A stretch of 8,178 nt of DNA from positions 1 to 8,178 of the forward strand of contig NZ_FUWK01000062.1 of the NCBI RefSeq assembly GCF_900167395.1, in the 5' to 3' direction. Source of the stretch: Nitrosomonas europaea (GTDB lineage: Bacteria; Pseudomonadota; Gammaproteobacteria; Burkholderiales; Nitrosomonadaceae). The notes under the pieces were generated by a model, which did no database searches, was not told where the DNA came from, and saw only the letters and a program-made list of their open reading frames with translations. The number at the start of each line of letters is the position of its first letter. The first letter of the stretch is position 1. Made by a program: the position numbers and the translations under genes. Of this stretch, positions 1-8,178 are shown in pieces.

Positions 1-319
1 CAGAGGATCGCAATACGTGTCGATCCGTTATACCGAACGTCTGGCACAAGCCGGTATTGAACCGTCTGTCGGCAGTCGCGGTGACAGTTACGATAATGCG
101 CTGGCTGAAACGATCAATGGCCTGTACAAGGCTGAACTGATACACAGGAGAGCTCCCTGGAAAACCAGGGCTGCTGTGGAGCTGGCAACTTTGGAATGGG
201 TTGCCTGGTATAACCATCAACGCCTGCTTGGATCTATCGGGTATATTCCTCCAGCTCAGGCTGAAGAAAACTACCGACAAACCCAGGATAATAAGACATT
301 GATGGATATTTTACTTTAA
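1..319 (+). CDS. IS3-family transposase OrfB (DDE/rve integrase core), C-terminal part; 5' end lies outside the window
   Basis: The frame is open from nt 2 and reads RGSQYVSIRYTERLAQAGIEPSVGSRGDSYDNALAETINGLYKAELIH...WYNHQRLLGSIGYIPPAQAEENY. That covers the (HSD)RGSQY motif, the GDSYDNALAE..NG.YK.E block and the YN..R.H..LGY..P tail typical of IS3-family (IS51/IS6110-like) OrfB. Stop at 317-319. Confidence 0.9.
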   Translation, partial: RGSQYVSIRYTERLAQAGIEPSVGSRGDSYDNALAETINGLYKAELIHRRAPWKTRAAVELATLEWVAWYNHQRLLGSIGYIPPAQAEENYRQTQDNKTLMDILL

Positions 320-354
320 CCAAATAGCCTCCTCGATTGTCGGGACGGTTCACA
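1..354 (+). mobile_element. Right end of an IS3-family insertion sequence (transposase 3' end plus terminal inverted repeat)
   Basis: Downstream of the transposase stop the sequence ...CGATTGTCGGGACGGTTCA(CA) ends at 352/354. Read inward from that end it is TG(TG)AACCGTCCCGACAATCG, giving the TG...CA termini of IS3-family IRs. It shares the GACAATC block with the IR at 3544. The exact terminus (352 vs 354) is ambiguous. Confidence 0.55.
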
Positions 355-383
355 ATGGAGTTACATCTTAGAGTAAAGAGCAG

Positions 384-842
384 TCATGAACGAAGCCTGG
401 AATCGAATGTAAAATTACGGATAATTTCAATCGTAACTTCTTTCATCATTGGATGATTTGGGTTGATGACTATGTTTCGAGCCTCTGGAATTACCGCTGA
501 CGGCACAATTAAACCGAGATATTTTCCATTGAGTAAGAAAGAATCACCATAGGTAGCTGCAGTTGGAGATCCGGGAAGGGCACTCCAACCATCTGGTAAA
601 GCATCAGGCGGCGGAATTTTGTAAAGGCTATTATCATCCGGCAAAGTCATTCTGACAACCACAAGATTCAGTGGAAGATTCGAACCTGTATGTACCAGCT
701 TCTCCATAGCAGCGATTCCCAGCGAGAGACCAGCATAAATTGCTGGTATGCTGGCGCTATTCCAGCGTTGACCTTTTATGCTGGCTCCATATCCGGTACG
801 GTCCAGAGCAAATTCTTTTCTGGAAATTCTCCAGACAAACAC
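384..842 (-). CDS. RES-domain toxin (NAD+-targeting type II TA toxin of the RES-Xre / ParT-MbcT type)
   Basis: 152 aa carrying the three signature positions in order: GQRWN (Arg), AAMEKLVH (Glu) and IVPSAVIPEARNIVINPNHP (Ser). GTG start; GGAGG lies about 9 nt upstream. Its start overlaps the upstream antitoxin stop by 1 nt (TAGTG). Confidence 0.9.
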   Translation of the reverse strand: MFVWRISRKEFALDRTGYGASIKGQRWNSASIPAIYAGLSLGIAAMEKLVHTGSNLPLNLVVVRMTLPDDNSLYKIPPPDALPDGWSALPGSPTAATYGDSFLLNGKYLGLIVPSAVIPEARNIVINPNHPMMKEVTIEIIRNFTFDSRLRS

Positions 843-1297
843 TAGGCAATGCCTCCATAAGCAATGGAAGCCAAAACTTTCCTTACTTCATCAGCACCCA
901 TATCAGTATCAAGTAACGATAGAGGGGATTCGCCCAAAGCCAGATTAGATTCGAGCATCCAACGCTTCGCCAGATCTGAAGAATCAAAAACTTTTTCTGC
1001 TTCGGCCTCGATTAGTGCAATTCGTGCCAATCTCTCGGATTCCAAAGGACCAAGTTTTCCGCTCGATCTGATCTTTCTGGTAATGGTTGCATCAGAGATA
1101 CCAAGTAACTTTGAAAGTTTTGCTTGAGATATACCGTAGTACCGCCCGGCACCAACTAAATGAGTTACTTTTACTCCATCTCGCACCATCTTAATCCTTT
1201 TAGCCGGAGGCATTTTCAGGATCGTCATGCCCCATTCCAGGAAAGAATGTCCGGATGATATTTCCTTTTGTTTGGCTTGTTTTCGCTCAATGTTCAT
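842..1297 (-). CDS. Xre-family HTH antitoxin with C-terminal DUF2384 (ParS/MbcA toxin-binding) domain
   Basis: HTH-like YGISQAKLSKLLGISDATITRKI is followed by GKLGPLESERLARIALIEAEAEKVFDSSDLAKRWMLESNLALGESPLSLLDTDMGADEVRKVLASIAYG, the classic DUF2384 pattern. It sits directly upstream of the RES toxin. The longest ORF starts at 1297 with no SD. An internal ATG at 1189 (MVRDG...) is preceded by AAGGA 5 nt upstream and may be the true start. Confidence 0.85.
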   Translation of the reverse strand: MNIERKQAKQKEISSGHSFLEWGMTILKMPPAKRIKMVRDGVKVTHLVGAGRYYGISQAKLSKLLGISDATITRKIRSSGKLGPLESERLARIALIEAEAEKVFDSSDLAKRWMLESNLALGESPLSLLDTDMGADEVRKVLASIAYGGIA

Positions 1298-1375
1298 TAT
1301 TTAATACAGTCAAATGATTAGATATTTACACTCGAAAGATTATATCATTAATAAAGATAAGGATTCTATTCAAAG

Positions 1376-1575
1376 TGACCTGACCAGCCTTTTTCGATTT
1401 AAGGGAACTTGAGACAATGTCATCTTGACGAGAGAAAGGCGTATGAAGAAGACGCAATACAGTGATGAACAGATCGTCCGGATCCTGCGGAAACGGACAA
1501 GGATACAGTGGCCGAGATTGTCAGGCGCTACACACCTGGCGCAAGGAATACGGTAGCATGGTGATCGAAATGTAG
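1376..1575 (+). pseudogene. Decayed left end of an IS3-family IS: terminal IR plus frameshifted/deleted orfA remnant
   Basis: TGACCTGACCAGCC... at 1376 is an IS3-type terminal IR and has the same TGACCTG start as the IR at 3544. The ATG at 1443 opens MKKTQYSDEQIVRILR, and two shifted frames then give ETDKDTVAEIVRRY and TWRKEYGSMVIEM*. These are the conserved IS3 OrfA blocks (HTH ... TWRK.YG), but they are spread over three frames with internal deletion. Confidence 0.65.
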
Positions 1576-1656
1576 CATCTATTGGCCTGTGCTTTTCTTC
1601 TATGGCCAGGGCAATGGCTAGCCGTGGGTTCGACGACGACAATCCCCGTAGCCTCT

Positions 1657-1945
1657 TCATTTTTGTCAGTTTTACGATGTGCTGTGTAGGTAATCCTCTA
1701 CAAAATAGTGGTGAATGGAGGAATTACCAAGCCATATGCACATAAAGGCCGCGATGATTACCAGAACGAAGAGGAGATTCTTCTGCTTGTGCAATTTCCT
1801 CTTCTTTTCTTCTGGCGGGAAGCTTACTCCCCCGAACGAAATTTTTGTAGCAGCATGAAAACCGTGGTCGATCCCCATTTTTCTGCACACACCGTCTTGA
1901 TAGCATCGGCAGACAAAAATCCTGGAATTATCAGTATACGTACGT
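1657..1945 (+). repeat. Copy A of a ~289-bp dispersed direct repeat (partner at 4158-4446)
   Basis: Hand alignment to 4158-4446 shows long identical runs, e.g. CTACAAAATAGTGGTGAATGGAGG, CGCGATGATTACCAGAACGAAGAG, TGCTTGTGCAATTTCCTCTTCTTTT, AAATTTTTGTAGCAGCATGAAAAC and ACCGTCTTGATAGCA. Scattered transitions plus a 3-nt and a 2-nt indel separate the copies. Identity is high from about 1684 and weaker back to about 1657. Confidence 0.85.
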
Positions 1946-1994
1946 AACCCATGGGATCGTTTCTTCAAGGAAAAGTACTTTTGATCATTGTCAC

Positions 1995-2189
1995 ATGGTT
2001 AAAGTAAAAACGCCTTTTCCTGAGGGGTTCTCACCGATAGGCATGAGTGGGAGCGCGCTATACGGTATGGACCGGAATGGAAATGTTCGATTTGGTGGTG
2101 CTGTAATTGAATTCAACGAATACACAAACGAATATATGGTTATTGGTGCAGCCATCCTGTCAGGGTTGCTTGGTCATGAAAATGCCTAA
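1995..2189 (+). CDS. Hypothetical 64-aa cassette ORF, possibly the 3' remnant of a longer gene truncated by the repeat/IS insertion
   Basis: The ORF ends with its TAA inside the R'' box GCCTAAC of the following attC, which is typical for cassette genes. The frame stays open upstream of the ATG into repeat A. It contains GMSGSALYG, faintly like a serine-hydrolase GxSGx motif. No SD is evident. Confidence 0.35.
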   Translation: MVKVKTPFPEGFSPIGMSGSALYGMDRNGNVRFGGAVIEFNEYTNEYMVIGAAILSGLLGHENA

Positions 2190-2261
2190 CAAGGCCATTA
2201 AGTTCGCTCCCTGCGGTCGCCGGACGTTCGCAAGCTCGCGCCGTTTATGGCGGCGTTAGAG
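2184..2261 (+). other. Integron attC recombination site #1 (R'' GCCTAAC 2184-2190 ... R' GTTAGAG 2255-2261)
   Basis: R'' fits RYYYAAC and R' is close to GTTRRRY. An imperfect palindrome lies between them (GCCATTAA / TTTATGGC arms and a GC-rich centre). Total length is 78 bp. The TTAGAGC following the predicted G|TT crossover is the reverse complement of the R'' at the end of the next cassette (2786-2793). Confidence 0.75.
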
Positions 2262-2277
2262 CATATCATCCAGATAC

Positions 2278-2313
2278 TTGATTCCCACTCAATAAAGGTA
2301 TACTTTCTATACC
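2278..2313 (+). promoter_or_regulatory. Putative brnTA promoter with overlapping palindromic operator
   Basis: TTGATT (2278-2283), a 15-nt spacer, then TATACT (2299-2304). The inverted repeat GGTATA (2297-2302) / TATACC (2308-2313) overlaps the -10 and abuts the ATG at 2314. No SD is present, which would imply a leaderless or near-leaderless mRNA. Motif matches only. Confidence 0.3.
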
Positions 2314-2577
2314 ATGATAGCTTTTGAGTTTGACGAGGCAAAGAGTCAGGCCAATCTTCTGAAACATGGCATCAGCTTTGTTGATGCTCAAGCATTATGG
2401 AATGACCCAAGATTACTGGAGATTCCCGCAAAAACAGAAGATGAACCACGATACCTTATGATAGGGCTGATTAACGGCAAACACTGGTCTGCCGTTATCA
2501 CTTACAGGGGTACAAATATCAGGCTTATTTCCGTTCGTTGCTCACGTACCGAGGAGGTGACACTATATGAAAGCTAA
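2314..2577 (+). CDS. brnT: BrnT (DUF497) ribonuclease toxin of a type II TA system
   Basis: 87 aa. FEFDEAKSQANLLKHGISFVDAQALWNDP...RYLMIGLINGKHWSAVITYRGTNIRLISVRCSRTEE matches the BrnT/DUF497 layout (FEWD..K...N..KHG.SF.EA..VF.DP ... IRIISAR.A...E). It overlaps the downstream antitoxin by 11 nt. Confidence 0.9.
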   Translation: MIAFEFDEAKSQANLLKHGISFVDAQALWNDPRLLEIPAKTEDEPRYLMIGLINGKHWSAVITYRGTNIRLISVRCSRTEEVTLYES

Positions 2578-2818
2578 AGATTTTGAACAGCAGTTTGACG
2601 AAGGCGTTGATATTACTGCTTCGCTGGATTTGTCAAAGGCAAAGCGCGTATTGCAAGAGCAAAAACGTGTCAATGTCGATTTCCCAACGTGGATGATTGA
2701 GTCTCTTGACCGGGAAGCTGAAAAGCTTGGTGTGACCAGGCAATCTATCATTAAGGTGTGGCTTGCCGAACGCCTCGAAAAGGCTGCTCTAACCCATCCA
2801 TCAAGCGGGACGCGCTAA
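2567..2818 (+). CDS. brnA: BrnA-type / CopG ribbon-helix-helix antitoxin partner of BrnT
   Basis: 83 aa. KRVNVDFPTWMIESLDREAEKLGVTRQSIIKVWLAERLEK is an RHH (beta strand plus two helices) module. GAGGAGG lies 7-9 nt upstream of the ATG. The C-terminal tail and stop codon are encoded inside attC #2. Confidence 0.85.
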   Translation: MKAKDFEQQFDEGVDITASLDLSKAKRVLQEQKRVNVDFPTWMIESLDREAEKLGVTRQSIIKVWLAERLEKAALTHPSSGTR

Positions 2819-2846
2819 AGCGCGCCCCTTATGTCCAACGTTAGCC
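2786..2846 (+). other. Integron attC recombination site #2 (R'' (G)CTCTAAC 2786-2793 ... R' GTTAGCC 2840-2846)
   Basis: The arms CATcAAGCGGGaCGCGC / GCGCGCCCCTTATG pair, leaving an unpaired C (2802, = G on the bottom strand) and A. The spacer is TCCAAC before GTT. GCTCTAAC is the exact reverse complement of GTTAGAGC at the start of the same cassette (2255-2262). Confidence 0.75.
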
Positions 2847-2891
2847 TGCAATTGAAGCGATTGCATATTGCGTCGTACGTACAATATACGT

Positions 2892-3156
2892 ATGAGTCTA
2901 TCCTTCGAGTGGGATCCAGAACCTGCGCAAGCATGGTGTTTCGTTCGAAGAGGCTGCGTCAGTGTTCTCCGACGAGCGAGCTCGCCTCATTGACGATCCC
3001 GACCATTCGGCTGAGGAGGAACGGTTCGTCTTGCTGGGTTTCAGCGCGAATCTTCGAGTCCTTGTCGTGGTTCATTGTTACCGGAGATCTGGAAGCACGA
3101 TTCGCCTTATTTCCGCCCGGAAGGCGACACGAGAGGAGAGGCGGTTTTACCCATAG
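2892..3156 (+). pseudogene. brnT-like (DUF497) toxin gene inactivated by a frameshifting deletion near codon 10
   Basis: The ATG at 2892 gives MSLSFEWDPE. The conserved continuation NLRKHGVSFEEAASVFSDERARLIDDPDHSAEEERFVLLGFSANLRVLVVVHCYRRSGSTIRLISARKATREERRFY is in the +1 frame from 2920. About 3-4 codons that normally sit between FEWDP. and NLRKHG are missing. The original frame stops after 33 codons. Confidence 0.8.
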
Positions 3157-3158
3157 GT

Positions 3159-3374
3159 ATGCCCATGAGACAACAGTATGACTTCAGTTCATCGAGGAAG
3201 AATCCCTACGCTGCGAAGCTCAAGAAGCCGGTGACGATTCGGCTGGACGAGGAGTCGATTTCCTACTTCAAGTCGATGTCCGAGGAAACTGGCATTCCGT
3301 ATCAGAGCTTGATCAATCTCTATCTGAAGGAATGCGCAGCATCAGGTAAGCGGCTGAATCTCTCGTGGAAGTAG
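3159..3374 (+). CDS. brnA: BrnA-family antitoxin (COG3514 / BrnA_antitoxin type), apparently intact
   Basis: MPMRQQYDFSSSRKNPYAAKLKKPVTIRLDEESISYFKSMSEETGIPYQSLINLYLKECAASGKRLNLSWK matches the family pattern YDFS.a.rNPYa..LKK.VTIRLD.d.i.YFK.la.etGipYQtLINlyLrdCa. The ATG at 3159 lies just after the brnT pseudogene stop. The 99-aa ORF on the track (start 3075) is an upstream extension. Confidence 0.85.
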   Translation: MPMRQQYDFSSSRKNPYAAKLKKPVTIRLDEESISYFKSMSEETGIPYQSLINLYLKECAASGKRLNLSWK

Positions 3375-3379
3375 CGCGT

Positions 3380-3451
3380 TGCCGTCTAACAATTAAGGTT
3401 ATGTCGTGATCGCGAAGCGAACCACGGCATAACCTTAATTGTTAGACGGCA
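3380..3451 (+). other. Integron attC site #3 (R'' GTCTAAC 3384-3390 ... R' GTTAGAC 3441-3447) forming a near-perfect 29-bp-stem hairpin
   Basis: TGCCGTCTAACAATTAAGGTTATGTCGTG (3380-3408) is the reverse complement of 3423-3451 with a single T/C difference. The loop contains CGCGAAGCG. The R boxes fit RYYYAAC/GTTRRRY perfectly. The site starts 6 nt after the brnA stop. Its R'' side is 10/12 complementary to the start of its cassette (GTTAGCCTGCAA at 2840). Confidence 0.7.
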
Positions 3452-3543
3452 GTTGCGTCAGCTTGAGTACTTTCATTTTTTTGAATTGCTCTCAATGCGA
3501 CCTGGTAGCAGTCGTCAACATGAGAATTTCCAACTAACTTCAT

Positions 3544-4161
3544 TGACCTGGTCAAGTAAAAGCGGACAATCCAGTTAAGCAACATATTTCAACATTTCCA
3601 TTTCTGCCTCATATTGGTTTGGACTTTTGTAGCCCAAGTATGAATGCAGTCGATGGCTGTTATAAAGCAGGAAATATACTGCAGCACATCTTGCTGTGCT
3701 GCATAGCGAGTCAGGTAGCATTGCCGATGGATTTGCTCCTGTTTAAGGCTACCGAATAAGCGCTCAGCCACTGAATCATGCCGGACCTTGTCCTCTTGCT
3801 TGTCAGATCGCGAAACTGCGCTACGCTTGTTTTCCCAACAATTTCCCACACGACTCATACTGCCGATAAAACCATGTATTTTTAAAAGTTGGCGGTACTG
3901 TTTGCTGGCGTATTGCGATCCACGATTCGAATGTGCTATCAGTCCTGCTTATGGTTGACGTTGCCAGACAGCCATTTGCAATGCATCACAAACCAGTTTT
4001 GCTTTCATTCTTGTACTCATACTCCAGCCGACCATCGTCAGATCACGCAAGGGTCGCAAGGTAGAAAGTCTGGCGACAATAATGGTCGATGAGGTACTGA
4101 CGAAACTTGCAACTATTCTGGATTGAAGGGAAGGGAAGGGATGCGATGGTGAAGAGCTCAT
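3544..4161 (-). pseudogene. IS3-family transposase orfB remnant with its terminal IR; 5'-truncated, with an in-frame stop and a mutated catalytic motif
   Basis: The minus strand reads ...DLTMVGWSMSTRMKAKLVCDALQMAVWQRQP*AGLIAHSNRGSQYASKQYRQLLKIHGFIGSMSRVGNCWEN...VAERLFGSLKQEQIH...RYAAQQDVLQYI. These are IS3 OrfB blocks in order. There is a TAA at 3949-3951, HSNRGSQY replaces HSDRGSQY, and there is an odd insertion after GNCW. The N-terminal ~100 codons and orfA are absent. The terminal IR TGACCTGGTCAAGTAAAAGCGGACAATCC starts at 3544. Confidence 0.85.
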
Positions 4162-4446
4162 TTACTCATTTTTTATCGGGACGTGTTGTGTACGGTAATC
4201 CCCTACAAAATAGTGGTGAATGGAGGGATTATCAAGCCACATGCACATAAAGGTCGCGATGATTACCAGAACGAAGAGAAGATTCTTTTGCTTGTGCAAT
4301 TTCCTCTTCTTTTGTTCTGGTGGGCTTATTCTCCCGAATGAAATTTTTGTAGCAGCATGAAAACTGTGGTTGATCCTCATTTTTCTGCACACCGTCTTGA
4401 TAGCAATCGACAGACAAAAATCTCGGAACAGCCAGCATACGTGTCA
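4158..4446 (+). repeat. Copy B of the ~289-bp dispersed direct repeat (partner at 1657-1945)
   Basis: See copy A. It has the same orientation and begins exactly where the IS3 orfB remnant is truncated. Similarity ends around CATACGT (4436-4442). Confidence 0.85.
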
Positions 4447-4770
4447 ACAACTTCAATATGAATGATCATCCAGATTCAGGATCCTGGATGTTGATATATC
4501 AGCCACCCTCACTCTCACCGTAATAAACAGATAATTCTTCCTTTACTCGTTGATTGAGATCAACTTCAAACGCAGCAGAATGCCTGAAACCTCATTTTTG
4601 AAATTTCAAAGGAGCTGTTTTTCTCCTGATCAAGGTAGCAAGCCGCTGCGAAGCTGATCGAATGAGCAAGGTGTAATCAGGACAGAAGATTGCGATATTT
4701 CACTCATGCAGTTCTTTTAATTCAAAATCTTACTGAATAATGAGTTTTGTTATACACCTATTTACAAAGA

Positions 4771-4807
4771 AGTATGCACCGCTTGCGGTGCATACTAAAC
4801 GTTGGGC
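4771..4807 (+). other. Hairpin plus R' core site GTTGGGC: 3' part of an attC whose R'' half I cannot find (probable attC remnant)
   Basis: AGTATGCACCG-CTTG-CGGTGCATACT (4771-4796) is a perfect 11-bp stem. It is followed by the spacer AAAC and GTTGGGC (4801-4807), the same L'-spacer-R' layout as attC #2 and #4 (..TCCAAC GTTAGCC, ..TTCAAC GTTAGGC). No RYYYAAC box is visible upstream. Confidence 0.45.
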
Positions 4808-4833
4808 GTCACACTGAACCTTCTGAGGCAACG

Positions 4834-5250
4834 ATGGACGAAAACTCACAGGCTAATAAGCACAAACATCTTGACTTCATTCAGGCTGCAATCAATCGAA
4901 TGGCAGGTAACTTGTTCTTGCTAAAAGGCTGGAGTATCACGTTGATTGCCGCATTGTTTGCACTAGCTGCGAAAGACTCAAACAAGCTCTACATCGTAAT
5001 CGCGTATTTCCCCTTATTTATTTTCTGGGCGTTAGACGGCTACTTTCTAAGCCAAGAACGCAAGTTCCGAGCCCTGTACGACCACGTTCGCACTCTCGAT
5101 GAGTCTCAGATTGACTTTTCGATGGACACAAGACCATTTAGCAGCGATATCCGAAATACGTGGGCTGGCTCTGCGTCGTCCAAGACCCTTGTTGTTTACT
5201 ACGCTGGGCTGGCTGTTGTAATGCTCATTCTCATGTACGTAGTGCGGTAG
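4834..5250 (+). CDS. Small (138 aa) predicted 3-TM membrane protein of unknown family; first gene of the TM + TIR cassette
   Basis: The ATG at 4834 has GAGG 5 nt upstream and lies 32 nt inside the cassette boundary. The track's longer start (4747, TTG) would begin in the preceding attC remnant. Hydrophobic segments are WSITLIAALFALAA, LYIVIAYFPLFIFWALDGYFL and TLVVYYAGLAVVMLILMYVV. There is an amphipathic N-terminus (HLDFIQAAINRMAGNLFLLKGW) and a polar ~45-aa loop (SQERKFRALYDHVRTLDESQIDFSMDTRPFSSDIRNTW). Confidence 0.75.
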   Translation: MDENSQANKHKHLDFIQAAINRMAGNLFLLKGWSITLIAALFALAAKDSNKLYIVIAYFPLFIFWALDGYFLSQERKFRALYDHVRTLDESQIDFSMDTRPFSSDIRNTWAGSASSKTLVVYYAGLAVVMLILMYVVR

Positions 5251-5269
5251 TTACCAAAGGAGAGGATTG

Positions 5270-5776
5270 GTGGCACGAAAATGTTTTTATAGCTTTCACT
5301 ATCAGCCAGATAACTGGCGTGCCTCTACTGTGCGCCAAATTGGAGCTATCGAAGGTAACCAACCGGCCAAAGACAATGATTGGGAGTCGATTGCTAGCGG
5401 CGCCAATCAAGACGAGAAAATCAAGCGCTGGATCGCAGAACAAATGCAAGGCCGCACTTGCACGATTGTTCTTGTCGGCACATCTACCGCTAATCGCAAA
5501 TGGATCAATCACGAGATAGTTAAGTCCTGGAATGATGGGCTGGGTGTGGTCGGAATTCGAATTCATGGCCTAAAGGATCGAAACGGAAATACGTCAGCAA
5601 TGGGGAAAAACCCTTTCGATCACATAACTCATGGCCCAAGTAAGAAGCCGCTTTCCTCTCTCGTCAAGTGCTATAACCCTGCGGGTGCTACCAGTCAGGA
5701 TCGTTACGCATGGATTGCTCAGCACCTCGAAAATGCAGTGGCAGAAGCAATACGAATCCGAAAAGCGAACTCGTAA
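5270..5776 (+). CDS. thsB: ThsB-like TIR-domain protein (DUF1863 / TIR-like family)
   Basis: MARKCFYSFHYQPDNWRASTVRQ..., ...CTIVLVGTSTANRKWINHEIVKSWNDGLGVVGIRIHGLKDRNGNTSAMGKNPFDHI parallels my recollection of Bacillus cereus ThsB (KRVFFSFHYQ...FRVNVVRN; VTCVLIGSQTFNRRWVRYEIMKSIEKGNKIIGIHINAFKDKYGN...GPNPFDYL). This includes the W..x.EI glutamate expected of TIR NADases. AGGAG lies 7 nt upstream of the GTG at 5270. The TTG at 5267 is an alternative start. Confidence 0.9.
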   Translation: MARKCFYSFHYQPDNWRASTVRQIGAIEGNQPAKDNDWESIASGANQDEKIKRWIAEQMQGRTCTIVLVGTSTANRKWINHEIVKSWNDGLGVVGIRIHGLKDRNGNTSAMGKNPFDHITHGPSKKPLSSLVKCYNPAGATSQDRYAWIAQHLENAVAEAIRIRKANS

Positions 5777-5785
5777 CAAAGTGAC

Positions 5786-5857
5786 GCCCAACCCTTCGGT
5801 CAAGAGGGACGCTCCGCCGGCAAGCCGGCTACGCGCCTCTTACCTTCAACGTTAGGC
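5786..5857 (+). other. Integron attC recombination site #4 (R'' GCCCAAC 5786-5792 ... R' GTTAGGC 5851-5857)
   Basis: 72 bp. The arms GGTcAAGAGG (5798-5808) / CCTCTTACC (5836-5844) pair with one unpaired C (5801, = extrahelical G on the bottom strand, as in canonical attC). The palindromic centre is GCCGGCAAGCCGGC. The spacer is TTCAAC before GTT. GTGACGCCCAAC (5781-5792) is the exact reverse complement of GTTGGGCGTCAC at the cassette start (4801-4812). Confidence 0.85.
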
Positions 5858-5937
5858 ATCAGTCGTTCGCATCTCTCACGTGCAGTGATAAATAGCTATG
5901 GTGGAGACATCCACCATCAAACTTATAGGAGAAAACT

Positions 5938-6168
5938 ATGTCAAAAGAAATAGCTTATGTGTCCGTACAACTTGACGATAACGTCCCTGAGTACATGGAT
6001 GGGATAATTCGCTGTGGCTCCGTCACATCTCAAGACGAAGATGGTAACGACCTGCAAGACCACCAAGAGCTTATCGACAACGCGGAGTTCCGCTCGGAAG
6101 ATGAACTTATCAGCTACGTCGCTAGCAAGCTTGGAGTTAGCAAGGATATTGTTGGCATTGATGCCTAA
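5938..6168 (+). CDS. Hypothetical highly acidic 76-aa protein (single-gene cassette)
   Basis: AGGAG lies 7 nt upstream of the ATG. The composition is about 18 Asp/Glu against 5 Lys/Arg by hand count (QDEDGNDLQDHQELIDNAEFRSEDE). The stop TAA (6166-6168) sits in the R'' box of the cassette's attC. I recognise no family. Confidence 0.7.
   Translation: MSKEIAYVSVQLDDNVPEYMDGIIRCGSVTSQDEDGNDLQDHQELIDNAEFRSEDELISYVASKLGVSKDIVGIDA
6157..6167 (+). other. Left fragment of attC #5 (R'' box GCCTA|AC interrupted by the group II intron)
   Basis: TTGATGCCTA (to 6167) joined to ACAA (8175-8178) gives TTGATGCCTAACAA. This restores R'' GCCTAAC. It is complementary to the cassette start GTTAGGCATCAG (5851-5862) at 11/12 positions and identical to the ATGCCTAACAA of attC #1 (2182-2192). 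Confidence 0.75.
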
Positions 6169-6236
6169 TCGGGTAGCTGGGAGCTTTTAACTCCCAGCCC
6201 CCACACCACCCACCGTGCGGGTCCGCAGTAGGCGGT
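6168..6236 (-). ncRNA. Group II intron domain V (6205-6236) and domain VI with bulged branch-point A (6174)
   Basis: DV RNA is ACCGCCUAC-UGCG-GACC-CGCA-CG-GUGGGUGGU: a 9-bp lower helix (with a CGC triad containing a G.U pair), a 2-nt CG bulge, a 4-bp upper helix and a tetraloop. In DVI, GCUGGGAG/CUCCCAGC form an 8-bp helix extended by GGG/CCC, with an unpaired A at 6174, the 7th nt from the 3' splice site. Folded by hand. Confidence 0.8.
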
Positions 6237-6268
6237 TCAACGAGCGTGCTCGTGTGACGACGACGCCT

Positions 6269-7582
6269 TCAACCCTTGTCCGGCCCGTAGCTCTGTGCTT
6301 TGCACCACAGGTCTTTGATGCTGAGCAGTCCCTGTGCCCTGAGCCAGTCGTTGGACATGGCCTGTTGGGTCACCGGAGTTCTGGCCATGCGCCAATAGCT
6401 CAGGCTGCTCACGCCGTGTTGGATGGCAGCCTTCAGCGGTATGCCCAAGTCCAGCAGGTGCCGGATCTTAGTGCGCGCCCAGCGCCACTGTTTCCAGTAG
6501 CACATACGCACCCGACGTCGGATCCATTCGTCCAGTTCCGGGATCGGCCGGTAGTACTGGCTGATCCCGTAGTACCCGAACCATCCCCGCAGATACTGAC
6601 CGAGCTTTTCCAGCCGGTACTCCATGCTGACGCCCCAACTTCTGCCGGTGAGTTGCCGCACCCGATGCTTGAAATTCGCCAGGGATTTCTCTGTCCAGCG
6701 GATCTTCTTGCCCACAAGAGTGAAGCCTAGAAAGCTGCATTCACTCATCGGTGCGACTTGGCTCTTGGCCAGGTTCACGGTGAGCTTGAGGGTGGATTGC
6801 AGGAAGTACGTGAGGCTTTGCATCACCCGCTCGGCCGCGCGTCGGGACTTGACCAGGATGATCACATCGTCGGCGTAGCGGGCGAAGCGGTGTCCGCGGC
6901 GTTCCAGTTCGAGATCGAACTGGTGCAGCAGGACGTTGGCCAACAGCGGCGAGAGCGGCCCGCCTTGCGGCGTGCCCACCTCGCTGGGTTGGGGGTGCTC
7001 CCCGACCAGCACCCCGGCGCGCAGGTAGCGCCCGATCAGGGCCAGCAGTCGCTTGTCGGCGATGCTTCGACTCAGCAGGCTCATCAACAGGTCATGGTTG
7101 ACGTTGTCGAAGAACCTGGCCAAGTCCAGATCTACCGCCCAACGGTAGCCGGCCTTCACGTGCGCCTGCACCTGGCGGATCGCCTGGTGTGCATTGCGGC
7201 CCGGTCGGAAGCCGAAGCTCGATGCCGAAAAGCCCGGATCGAAGATCGGTATGAGCACCTGGGCGATGGCCTGCTGGATGACCCGGTCCGTGACGGTCGG
7301 GATGCCCAGTTGCCGTTGGCCGCCATCGGGCTTGGGGATATCCACCCGTCGCACCGGTTGCGGCCGATATCGCCCGGCCTCGATCTGCTCGCGCGTGGCT
7401 GGCCAGTGTGCGCGGGCGTGTTCGGGCCATTCCGCCGTGGTCACGCCGTCGATACCCGGCGCCCCCCTATTGGATTTGACCCTGCGCCACGCCCGCGCCA
7501 GGTTGTCTCTGGCCAGCACGGCCTCGAGCAGGTCTTGGCCGTCTTGGTTATGGTCGTCGTCTTGGTTCAAGGCTCGGTGCAT
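6269..7582 (-). CDS. ltrA: Group II intron-encoded reverse transcriptase/maturase (RT + X domains, no En domain)
   Basis: 437 aa. It has NRGAPGIDG (RT1), RRVDIPKPDGGQRQLGIPTVTDRVIQQA (RT2/3), FGFRPGRNAHQA (RT4), DLDLARFFDNVNHD, GTPQGGPLSPLLANV (RT5), FARYADDVIILV (YADD, RT5/6), FLGF (RT7) and the maturase X motif LGQYLRGWFGYYG. The protein ends shortly afterwards, so there is no HNH endonuclease. Confidence 0.95.
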   Translation of the reverse strand: MHRALNQDDDHNQDGQDLLEAVLARDNLARAWRRVKSNRGAPGIDGVTTAEWPEHARAHWPATREQIEAGRYRPQPVRRVDIPKPDGGQRQLGIPTVTDRVIQQAIAQVLIPIFDPGFSASSFGFRPGRNAHQAIRQVQAHVKAGYRWAVDLDLARFFDNVNHDLLMSLLSRSIADKRLLALIGRYLRAGVLVGEHPQPSEVGTPQGGPLSPLLANVLLHQFDLELERRGHRFARYADDVIILVKSRRAAERVMQSLTYFLQSTLKLTVNLAKSQVAPMSECSFLGFTLVGKKIRWTEKSLANFKHRVRQLTGRSWGVSMEYRLEKLGQYLRGWFGYYGISQYYRPIPELDEWIRRRVRMCYWKQWRWARTKIRHLLDLGIPLKAAIQHGVSSLSYWRMARTPVTQQAMSNDWLRAQGLLSIKDLWCKAQSYGPDKG

Positions 7583-8178
7583 GCCGACCGCCGCCGTGCC
7601 TGGCCCATGCGGGCTTCATCGGTTTGGTCGAGTTCGGTCACGTCTGCTCCTTAGTATCTCGTTGTTCAGCCCTTCGGCAGCCCGACACCTGGCTGCCTAC
7701 TATGGCTTCTGCTGACTTCTGCACCGTCACGCCCACCGTTGCCAGTGGACGCGCTGCCCGTCTGATCGTGCGTCGCTGCCGGTTTCTTCGCTCGTGGCGG
7801 GCAGCTCGCCACGGCTCCTGGTCCTTGGTTGCCCGGTGGGACCGGCCGGGTCATCGTCACGATCAGGCTGGCCGCCGTCAGCACAGACCTCCCCAGGTAA
7901 GAACGCGAACTGTCGGTGCACAAGCGCCGCATTTACCGTGGCCGGCGTACCGTTGGGCTTCGCTGTCATGTGCCAGCTCGCCTCGCCTGCCTCGGCCTTC
8001 TATGCGGTTTCTGTCCGTCGCCTCGCACCTCTTGCACTCCGGCTTCCTCCAGACAATCCCTCACGGGCTTGCCCTTGCCTTCGGCTCGTGGTTATACTCG
8101 GTTCACAATGAATCCAAGTCGGTACTCCCACAGGGGACTTGCACCCCATAAGTTCGCGCCCATGCTGGGCGCACACAA

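Follow-up and report, generated by a model that had tools for sequence, protein, structure and literature searches.

A group IIC-attC intron matching N.e.I1 in a cassette attC site of Nitrosomonas europaea

What interrupts the attC site at the right end of a cassette array in Nitrosomonas europaea, and is the element responsible new, complete and able to move? The array lies on an 8,178-nt contig (RefSeq assembly GCF_900167395.1, NZ_FUWK01000062.1, positions 1 to 8,178 of the forward strand), which we call the window and which is the whole of contig C14. Its right end falls 4 nt past a 2007-nt minus-strand element, leaving the rest of the interrupted site, attC #5, outside. The original prediction had read this element as an apparently intact group II intron inserted antisense into the R'' box of attC #5. 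We found it to be a group IIC-attC intron (bacterial class C), almost certainly N.e.I1 of N. europaea ATCC 19718, which is present in two identical copies; it lies antisense in the bottom strand of an attC.

On the minus strand the intron runs from GUGCG at 8174 to a CCCGAU ending at 6168. Its 5' junction reads ttgt|GTGCGCCC (8178-8175|8174), or, taken further along the minus strand of 5900-8178, ttgt|GTGCGCCCAGC, and its 3' junction reads CTACCCGAT|taggcatca (6168|6167), or at greater length CCCAGCUACCCGAU|uaggcaucaaug. The exon flanks are TTGT|TAGGC, as had been claimed: the 5' exon ends with the four nucleotides TTGT of the intron-binding site IBS1 (8175-8178, minus strand; ACAA on the plus strand, completing R'' as GCCTAAC-AA), and the 3' exon starts with TAGGC (5 nt, 6163-6167, minus strand; the GCCTA half of R'' on the plus strand), the T at 6167 being IBS3. 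Deleting 6168-8174 joins ATGCCTA to ACAA on the plus strand, and the intron splits the R'' box GCCTA|AC of an attC downstream of a 76-aa cassette open reading frame (ORF; 5938-6168, plus strand), at a position between the two T's of the bottom-strand R'' GTT triplet. The cassette ORFs are on the strand opposite to the intron. The junctions had been described as resolved to the base, and this stands by the GUGYG...AY convention, on which, together with alignment to relatives, our choice of junction rests; the sequence by itself permits a shift of 1 nt, as each junction is preceded by a T and the shifted cut TTG|TGTGCG...CCCGA|TTAGG yields identical ligated exons. The boundaries agree with the Rfam matches to domains I-IV and with the alignments of two plasmid-borne introns described below. 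The TAA stop codon of the 76-aa ORF (6166-6168) overlaps R'' and the last base of the intron, its final A being the complement of the intron's terminal U; in the empty allele this A would come from ACAA (8175-8178). Since TAA is kept with or without the intron, the insertion is silent for the ORF, as predicted. The 76-aa protein matched no Pfam family, and its cassette was absent from the 39 related genomes searched, which gave no empty-site allele.

Between these boundaries the parts of a group II intron follow in order on the minus strand. Rfam model RF02001 matched the domain I core at 7902-8070 with 118.7 bits (gathering score 32), and RF01998 matched the region from domains II-III to the base of domain IV at 7669-7753 with 70.6 bits (gathering score 35). 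The sole long minus-strand ORF (7582 to 6269) is open and encodes the 437-aa intron-encoded protein (IEP), in which we found a reverse transcriptase (RT) domain (RVT_1, 1.8e-40, residues 82-289, with the YADD motif) and a maturase domain (GIIM, 1.4e-19, residues 302-373); no other Pfam domain and no endonuclease domain was found in it. Domains V and VI were shown by folding 6168-6250 (centroid structure) and comparing the result with shuffled sequences. These 83 nt after the IEP ORF form two hairpins at -43.3 kcal/mol (shuffle mean -30.8, z = -4.06). Domain V is a 32-nt hairpin (6236-6205) whose 5' strand CCGCC holds the CGC triad stated for some group II introns (PMC4424553), with a 2-nt bulge and a 4-nt GACC loop, and domain VI (6203-6170) carries a single bulged A, the branch point, at 6174, 7 nt from the 3' end. 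The open IEP, its YADD motif and both terminal domains with the bulged A had all been predicted, and all are present by Pfam, motif and fold.

A comparison with the complete genome of N. europaea ATCC 19718 (AL954747.1) identified the element. Window positions 269-8178 are 100% identical over 7910 bp to ~2,285,091-2,293,000 of this genome, the whole intron included, and the same genome accession is the source of N.e.I1 as listed by Leon, Quiroga, Centron & Roy (NAR 2010; AL954747, IEP NP_842195, 5'-exon gene ampG; PMC3001079). The primers published for N.e.I1 match the window exactly at intron nt 1-20 and 181-200. Table 3 of the same paper gives two outward promoters for N.e.I1, P1out (TTGCCC-18-TATACT, nt 77-106) and P2out (TTGCCA-16-TCTGAT, nt 409-435) (PMC3001079). 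A promoter scan of the window found P1out, which points in the cassette direction, on the plus strand at 8069-8098 (intron nt 77-106), with the published sequence at the published position, and P2out is present with its published sequence on the plus strand at 7739-7766 (intron nt 409-436; printed end 435). P1out of N.e.I1 drives cat in Escherichia coli at 0.40 of the level of tac, more than five times that of the weak integron promoter Pc (PMC3001079). By its sequence, then, the element is the published N.e.I1, already known and not a discovery; the original prediction acknowledged only that the phenomenon is known, which says too little. The sequenced genome is accordingly that of ATCC 19718 or of a strain that cannot be told apart from it.

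The reference genome also supplied what the window lacks. Beyond the intron the 5' exon TTGT continues into 56 nt (L100:5353-5408 of AL954747.1) that together with GCCTA give an attC of 60 nt, complete with L'', L' and R' (GTTAGCT), which folds as an R-box/L-box hairpin; the expectation that the sequence past 8178 would continue as an attC was thus borne out. As a separate observation, the 18 nt directly beyond the intron, ACAATTCATTCAAGCCGA (L100:5391-5408), are also the opening 18 nt of primer Sm909-3497.for (PMC3001079), which lies in the aadB attC beside the intron S.ma.I2 (PMC3001079), so attC #5 and the class 1 resistance-cassette attC occupied by S.ma.I2 are very similar.

Because the window contig stops 4 nt past the intron, we considered whether the junction, and with it the placing of an intron in an attC, might be an artefact of assembly, the contig breaking off within a repeat. 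The repeat exists: a 2016-bp block that starts at window position 6163 and consists of GCCTA, the intron and ACAA is 100% identical on three contigs (the window, C32 and C74), and one expected exit contig is missing, since no fourth contig with the 5' exon of the window copy was found among the contigs of the assembly. On contig C32 the intron follows an integron integrase gene, an attI-like junction and one cassette ORF; contig C74 begins with the block, runs on through the rest of a 111-nt attC whose end reads GTTAGTT and then has a gene on the opposite strand. The attC reconstituted from C32 and C74 folds as an attC-like hairpin (-34 kcal/mol). The 5' exons of the two places diverge right after ACAA (ACAAT against ACAAG), which is why C14 and C32 stop exactly there, and the 5'-flank contig is missing because the intron has just ~195 nt of unique DNA between it and a multi-copy insertion sequence (IS). 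At its other end the window contig begins where it does because positions 1-352 are the right end of an IS3-family element found at 10 or more contig ends. The complete genome AL954747.1 has the identical junctions at 100%, which refutes an artefact, and we leave that reading virtually no chance. N.e.I1 in a real attC is the reading we retain.

The IEP places the intron within class C. Its best relative of solved structure is the GsI-IIC RT (462 bits, 1.7e-137), followed by the 7uim group II intron RT/maturase (376 bits) and the shorter RT chains 5hhj and 5hhl (~284 bits), and against members of other classes it scored 140 bits (LtrA, IIA) and 134 bits (a IIB maturase). A maximum-likelihood tree of 66 IEPs, built quickly, rooted at the midpoint and lacking both a named reference set and an outgroup of another intron class, split into two groups at 99% support in the Shimodaira-Hasegawa-like approximate likelihood-ratio test (SH-aLRT). 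The larger (56 rows) holds the window IEP, that of a class 1 integron intron and relatives from Geobacter and Accumulibacter that are inserted in attC or GT|T sites; the smaller (10 rows), mostly Bacillota, holds relatives from Bacillota, Actinomycetota, Spirochaetota and Ignavibacteriota. The nearest neighbour of the window IEP is in an Ideonella metagenome-assembled genome (86% identity), relatives in Burkholderiales reaching 86% or less. In a published tree the N. europaea IEP falls within the IIC-attC lineage, with 100% bootstrap at the base of that lineage (PMC3001079). The two plasmid-borne introns align with the window intron from end to end, with junctions TTGT|GT[AG]CGCCC and CUACCCGAU|U. 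One lies antisense in a dfrA14 attC, between cmlA5 and qacEdelta1-sul1, in a class 1 integron on an Enterobacter cloacae plasmid (OW968333.1), and the other is on a plasmid of Ca. Methylocalor. We took 48 junctions from 80 related loci of named genomes; nearly all are GT|T, with RRRY following in the close relatives, so that the insertion point falls between the two T's of the R'' GTT on the bottom strand. The predicted class C, attC-type architecture thus holds, by the GsI-IIC match, the grouping with attC/GT|T-inserted introns and the 99% split.

IIC-attC introns are known to target TTGT/T (IBS1/IBS3) in R'' on the bottom strand of attC, against the direction in which the cassettes are transcribed; they pair over an IBS1 of 3-4 bp and have no IBS2 (PMC7923331, PMC3001079, PMC4424553). 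As class C introns insert mostly after intrinsic terminators (PMC4424553), we asked whether this one could be an ordinary class C intron behind a terminator-like hairpin that only resembles an attC. The DNA stem-loop 5' of the insertion is the attC bottom-strand hairpin itself, and the site has R'', L'', L' and R' in an array with four further attCs, shows no T-run, and has its counterpart, for the other intron copy, in a cassette attC adjoining intI and attI; moreover the IEP groups with those of attC-inserted introns and N.e.I1 is listed as IIC-attC (PMC3001079). The chance that the site is merely a terminator-like hairpin is accordingly close to nil, and we continue with insertion into an attC.

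How the intron would recognize this site was examined through its exon-binding site, EBS1. In relatives, a loop at nt 202-209 of the intron changes in step with the 5' flank (ACAA with TTGT, ACCA with TGGT, ACTA with TAGT, ACAC with GTGT), and the stem closing this loop co-varies as well, so the loop behaves as EBS1. In the window intron the EBS1 loop is ACAU (7971-7968, minus strand; intron nt 204-207). Relatives with ACCA, ACTA or ACAC loops are found at perfectly complementary sites, and those with an ACAU loop are spread over TTGT (five), GGGT (six), TGGT (two) and GTGT (one). The varied sites of the ACAU loop imply that its sub-lineage relies on little beyond GT|T and the hairpin and tolerates mismatches at IBS1 positions -3 and -4, which points to a stringency of IBS1 pairing that differs among sub-lineages.

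AL954747.1 holds two places for this intron, and the window's is only one of them. Copy 1 (~2,285,095-2,287,101) is the window's and lies at the distal end of an array without an adjacent integrase gene. Copy 2 (~2,378,147-2,380,153), to which C32 and C74 are 100% identical, is inverted, ~91 kb away and 100% identical to copy 1 over 2007 nt; it occupies the attC of the one cassette (DUF6232, 123 aa) that adjoins intI, and is followed by ampG, which reads toward the intron. Identity between the copies ends at GCCTA on one side and ACAA on the other, a 5 + 4 nt attC core, and the flanks beyond are unrelated. To share nothing more than this core is expected of two retromobility events and not of a DNA duplication. 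Two identical copies in different attCs thus argue, as far as sequence can, for recent retromobility in the lineage, and the complete intron is probably active.

Several observations weigh against this reading of a complete, active N.e.I1. The Rfam model for domains V and VI (RF00029) gave no match in the window at E<=1. EBS1 and IBS1 pair over 3 bp (ACA/UGU) with a U-U opposite position -4; it had been anticipated that the EBS could pair with TTGT, and the EBS1 loop does pair, over three positions and not four. EBS3 was not located among the relatives, in which every 3' exon starts with T and there is no covariation signal. The complete reference genome holds only two copies, and the four intact attCs within 4 kb of the window copy are empty, two of them being TTGT|TAG sites. 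These four are all of the GT|T type (TTGT|TAG at 2186-2192 and 3386-3392, and GGGT|T twice). The 11-mer of the reconstituted target, ATGCCTAACAA, was predicted to lie unoccupied in attC #1, and it does, at 2182-2192 (R'' plus flank of attC #1, 2184-2261, plus strand), its single occurrence in the 2.74-Mb genome; attC #3 (3384-3447, plus strand) is the second empty TTGT|TAG site. Beyond the four intact window attCs, our scan gave scattered weak candidates elsewhere; it used a relaxed pattern, a strict one having missed attC #1 and #2. That neighbouring attCs are empty suggests that mobility, if any, is infrequent or occasional.

The same facts would suit an intact-looking but immobile resident, an old insertion kept only since excision is impossible, whose copies arose by DNA duplication or gene conversion. 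Its two copies, the perfect TTGT|TAG sites left empty nearby and the 3-nt EBS1 pairing are all in keeping with it, as are hybrid junction contigs (below) that suggest the copies may recombine as DNA. But a DNA duplication would normally bring flanking sequence along, and the shared identity here stops at GCCTA and ACAA; each copy lies at a precise GT|T position, in an attC of its own; and the ORF, the YADD motif and domains V and VI are intact, with zero differences between the copies. We consider an immobile resident rather improbable and prefer a probably active N.e.I1.

For such an intron, a life cycle can be proposed from what is established for class C. Intron RNA would come from read-through on the 5'-exon side, from an IS3-type transposase gene at the window copy and from ampG at the other, and the IEP would assist splicing and stay bound to the lariat. 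The ribonucleoprotein would then reverse-splice into attC bottom strands folded as single-stranded hairpins, recognizing the hairpin along with the short IBS1 and IBS3, and cDNA would be primed by a replication-fork strand because the IEP has no endonuclease domain (PMC4424553). Once split, the attC would be unable to fold and the cassette would be fixed in place, its excision lost because R'' sits 2 kb from L''-L'-R'; cassette-sense transcripts would be unable to splice the intron out. P1out and P2out could drive whatever lies beyond the intron, given the activity reported by Leon et al. 2010 (PMC3001079).

The intron stands out from its surroundings in G+C content (63.6%, where the remainder of the window has 46.1% and the genome 50.7%), which, with nearest neighbours in Burkholderiales, fits horizontal acquisition. 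Close relatives are scarce in the genus: one of 23 same-genus genomes (G009) has one, at 86-93% identity, with an internal deletion and decayed. This decayed relative (G009:C9:58211-62168, L090) occupies GGGT|TAGGTG in the attC of another cassette, and a further intron fragment of 430 bp lies 4 kb from it (G009:C9:64997-65426). The window's own genome has a ~270-bp remnant of a related group II intron (G000:C46:54025-54294) made of three fragments that match portions of the IEP and domain IV region at 83-89% identity; it scored 34.3 bits with RF01998, below the gathering score of 35. A related complete 2.84-Mb genome (CP054389.1) carries the same intron copy as the window, split near nt 89-95 by an IS3-family element (L099 4080-5497), with window 8080-8178 and 5348-8086 mapping on either side of the IS with a 7-nt overlap; by this split that copy is dead. 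Within the array itself, window 4747-5776 is a two-gene cassette that encodes a ThsB-type Toll/interleukin-1 receptor (TIR) protein (PF08937, 1.7e-30) and an upstream 167-aa ORF for which no Pfam family was found.

Three independent assemblies, made from other samples, bear on what the two copies may do as DNA. L102 (JGI 3300030446), L103 (ENA ERZ926323) and L108 (JGI 3300029168) each join the ampG-side 5' exon, the intron and the side of the window's 76-aa/ThsB cassettes, flanks that in AL954747.1 belong to different inverted copies ~91 kb apart; the reciprocal junction was not seen among the 10 places listed. These joins could be misjoins induced by the repeat, or recombination between the copies could have inverted the DNA that separates them. 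That the inverted copies serve as recombination substrates, inverting this segment and making the cassette near intI and the array without an integrase exchange attC halves, seems to us conceivable but unlikely. Leon & Roy reportedly proposed that introns mediate the joining of attC sites and genes in cassette formation, and, if real, the three joins would be a natural example of it.

As a discovery the locus carries little weight, N.e.I1 having been catalogued and its outward promoter assayed already. It is a useful worked example, with exact junctions, an unchanged cassette stop codon, empty look-alike sites and a second copy beside intI, and the original prediction, read from the sequence only, recovered the element to the base. 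Three points may be new: the ACAU EBS1 sub-lineage at NNGT|T sites with a pairing of only 2-3 bp; recombination between the two N.e.I1 copies, itself an unsupported possibility; and the IS insertion in the intron of one sequenced strain.

Set beside known systems, the window intron is closest to N.e.I1 as published (PMC3001079), with which it shares its sequence, primer sites and P1out and P2out, the IEP being identical at both genomic places; the copy in Table 3 adjoins ampG, whereas the window holds the other copy, ~91 kb off in an array without an integrase gene. S.ma.I2, E.c.I7, Kl.pn.I1 and the dfrA14-attC intron of OW968333.1 likewise lie antisense in the attC bottom strand at TTGT|T. 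These class 1 integron IIC-attC introns share with it the 5' end GT[AG]CGCCC, the 3' end CUACCCGAU, an RT-maturase without an endonuclease domain and outward promoters in domains I and II; they differ in sequence (~70% nucleotide identity over 46% of the length), in EBS1 (ACAA, against ACAU here) and in setting, a resistance plasmid there and a chromosomal array of a nitrifier here. Betaproteobacterial introns, from Ideonella, Roseateles, Sphaerotilus and Ca. Accumulibacter, resemble it in their IEPs (75-86% identical), mostly in an ACAU EBS1 loop and in GT|T targets followed by RRRY, but are found at GGGT, TGGT and GTGT besides TTGT. With B.h.I1, GsI-IIC and O.i.I1 it has in common a IIC ribozyme with the CGC triad, an IEP without an endonuclease domain, an upstream DNA hairpin and a short IBS1 with IBS3; those introns insert after intrinsic terminators, N.e.I1 inside the R'' of an attC, and the class C relatives from Bacillota stand on the opposite side of the 99% tree split from the window IEP.

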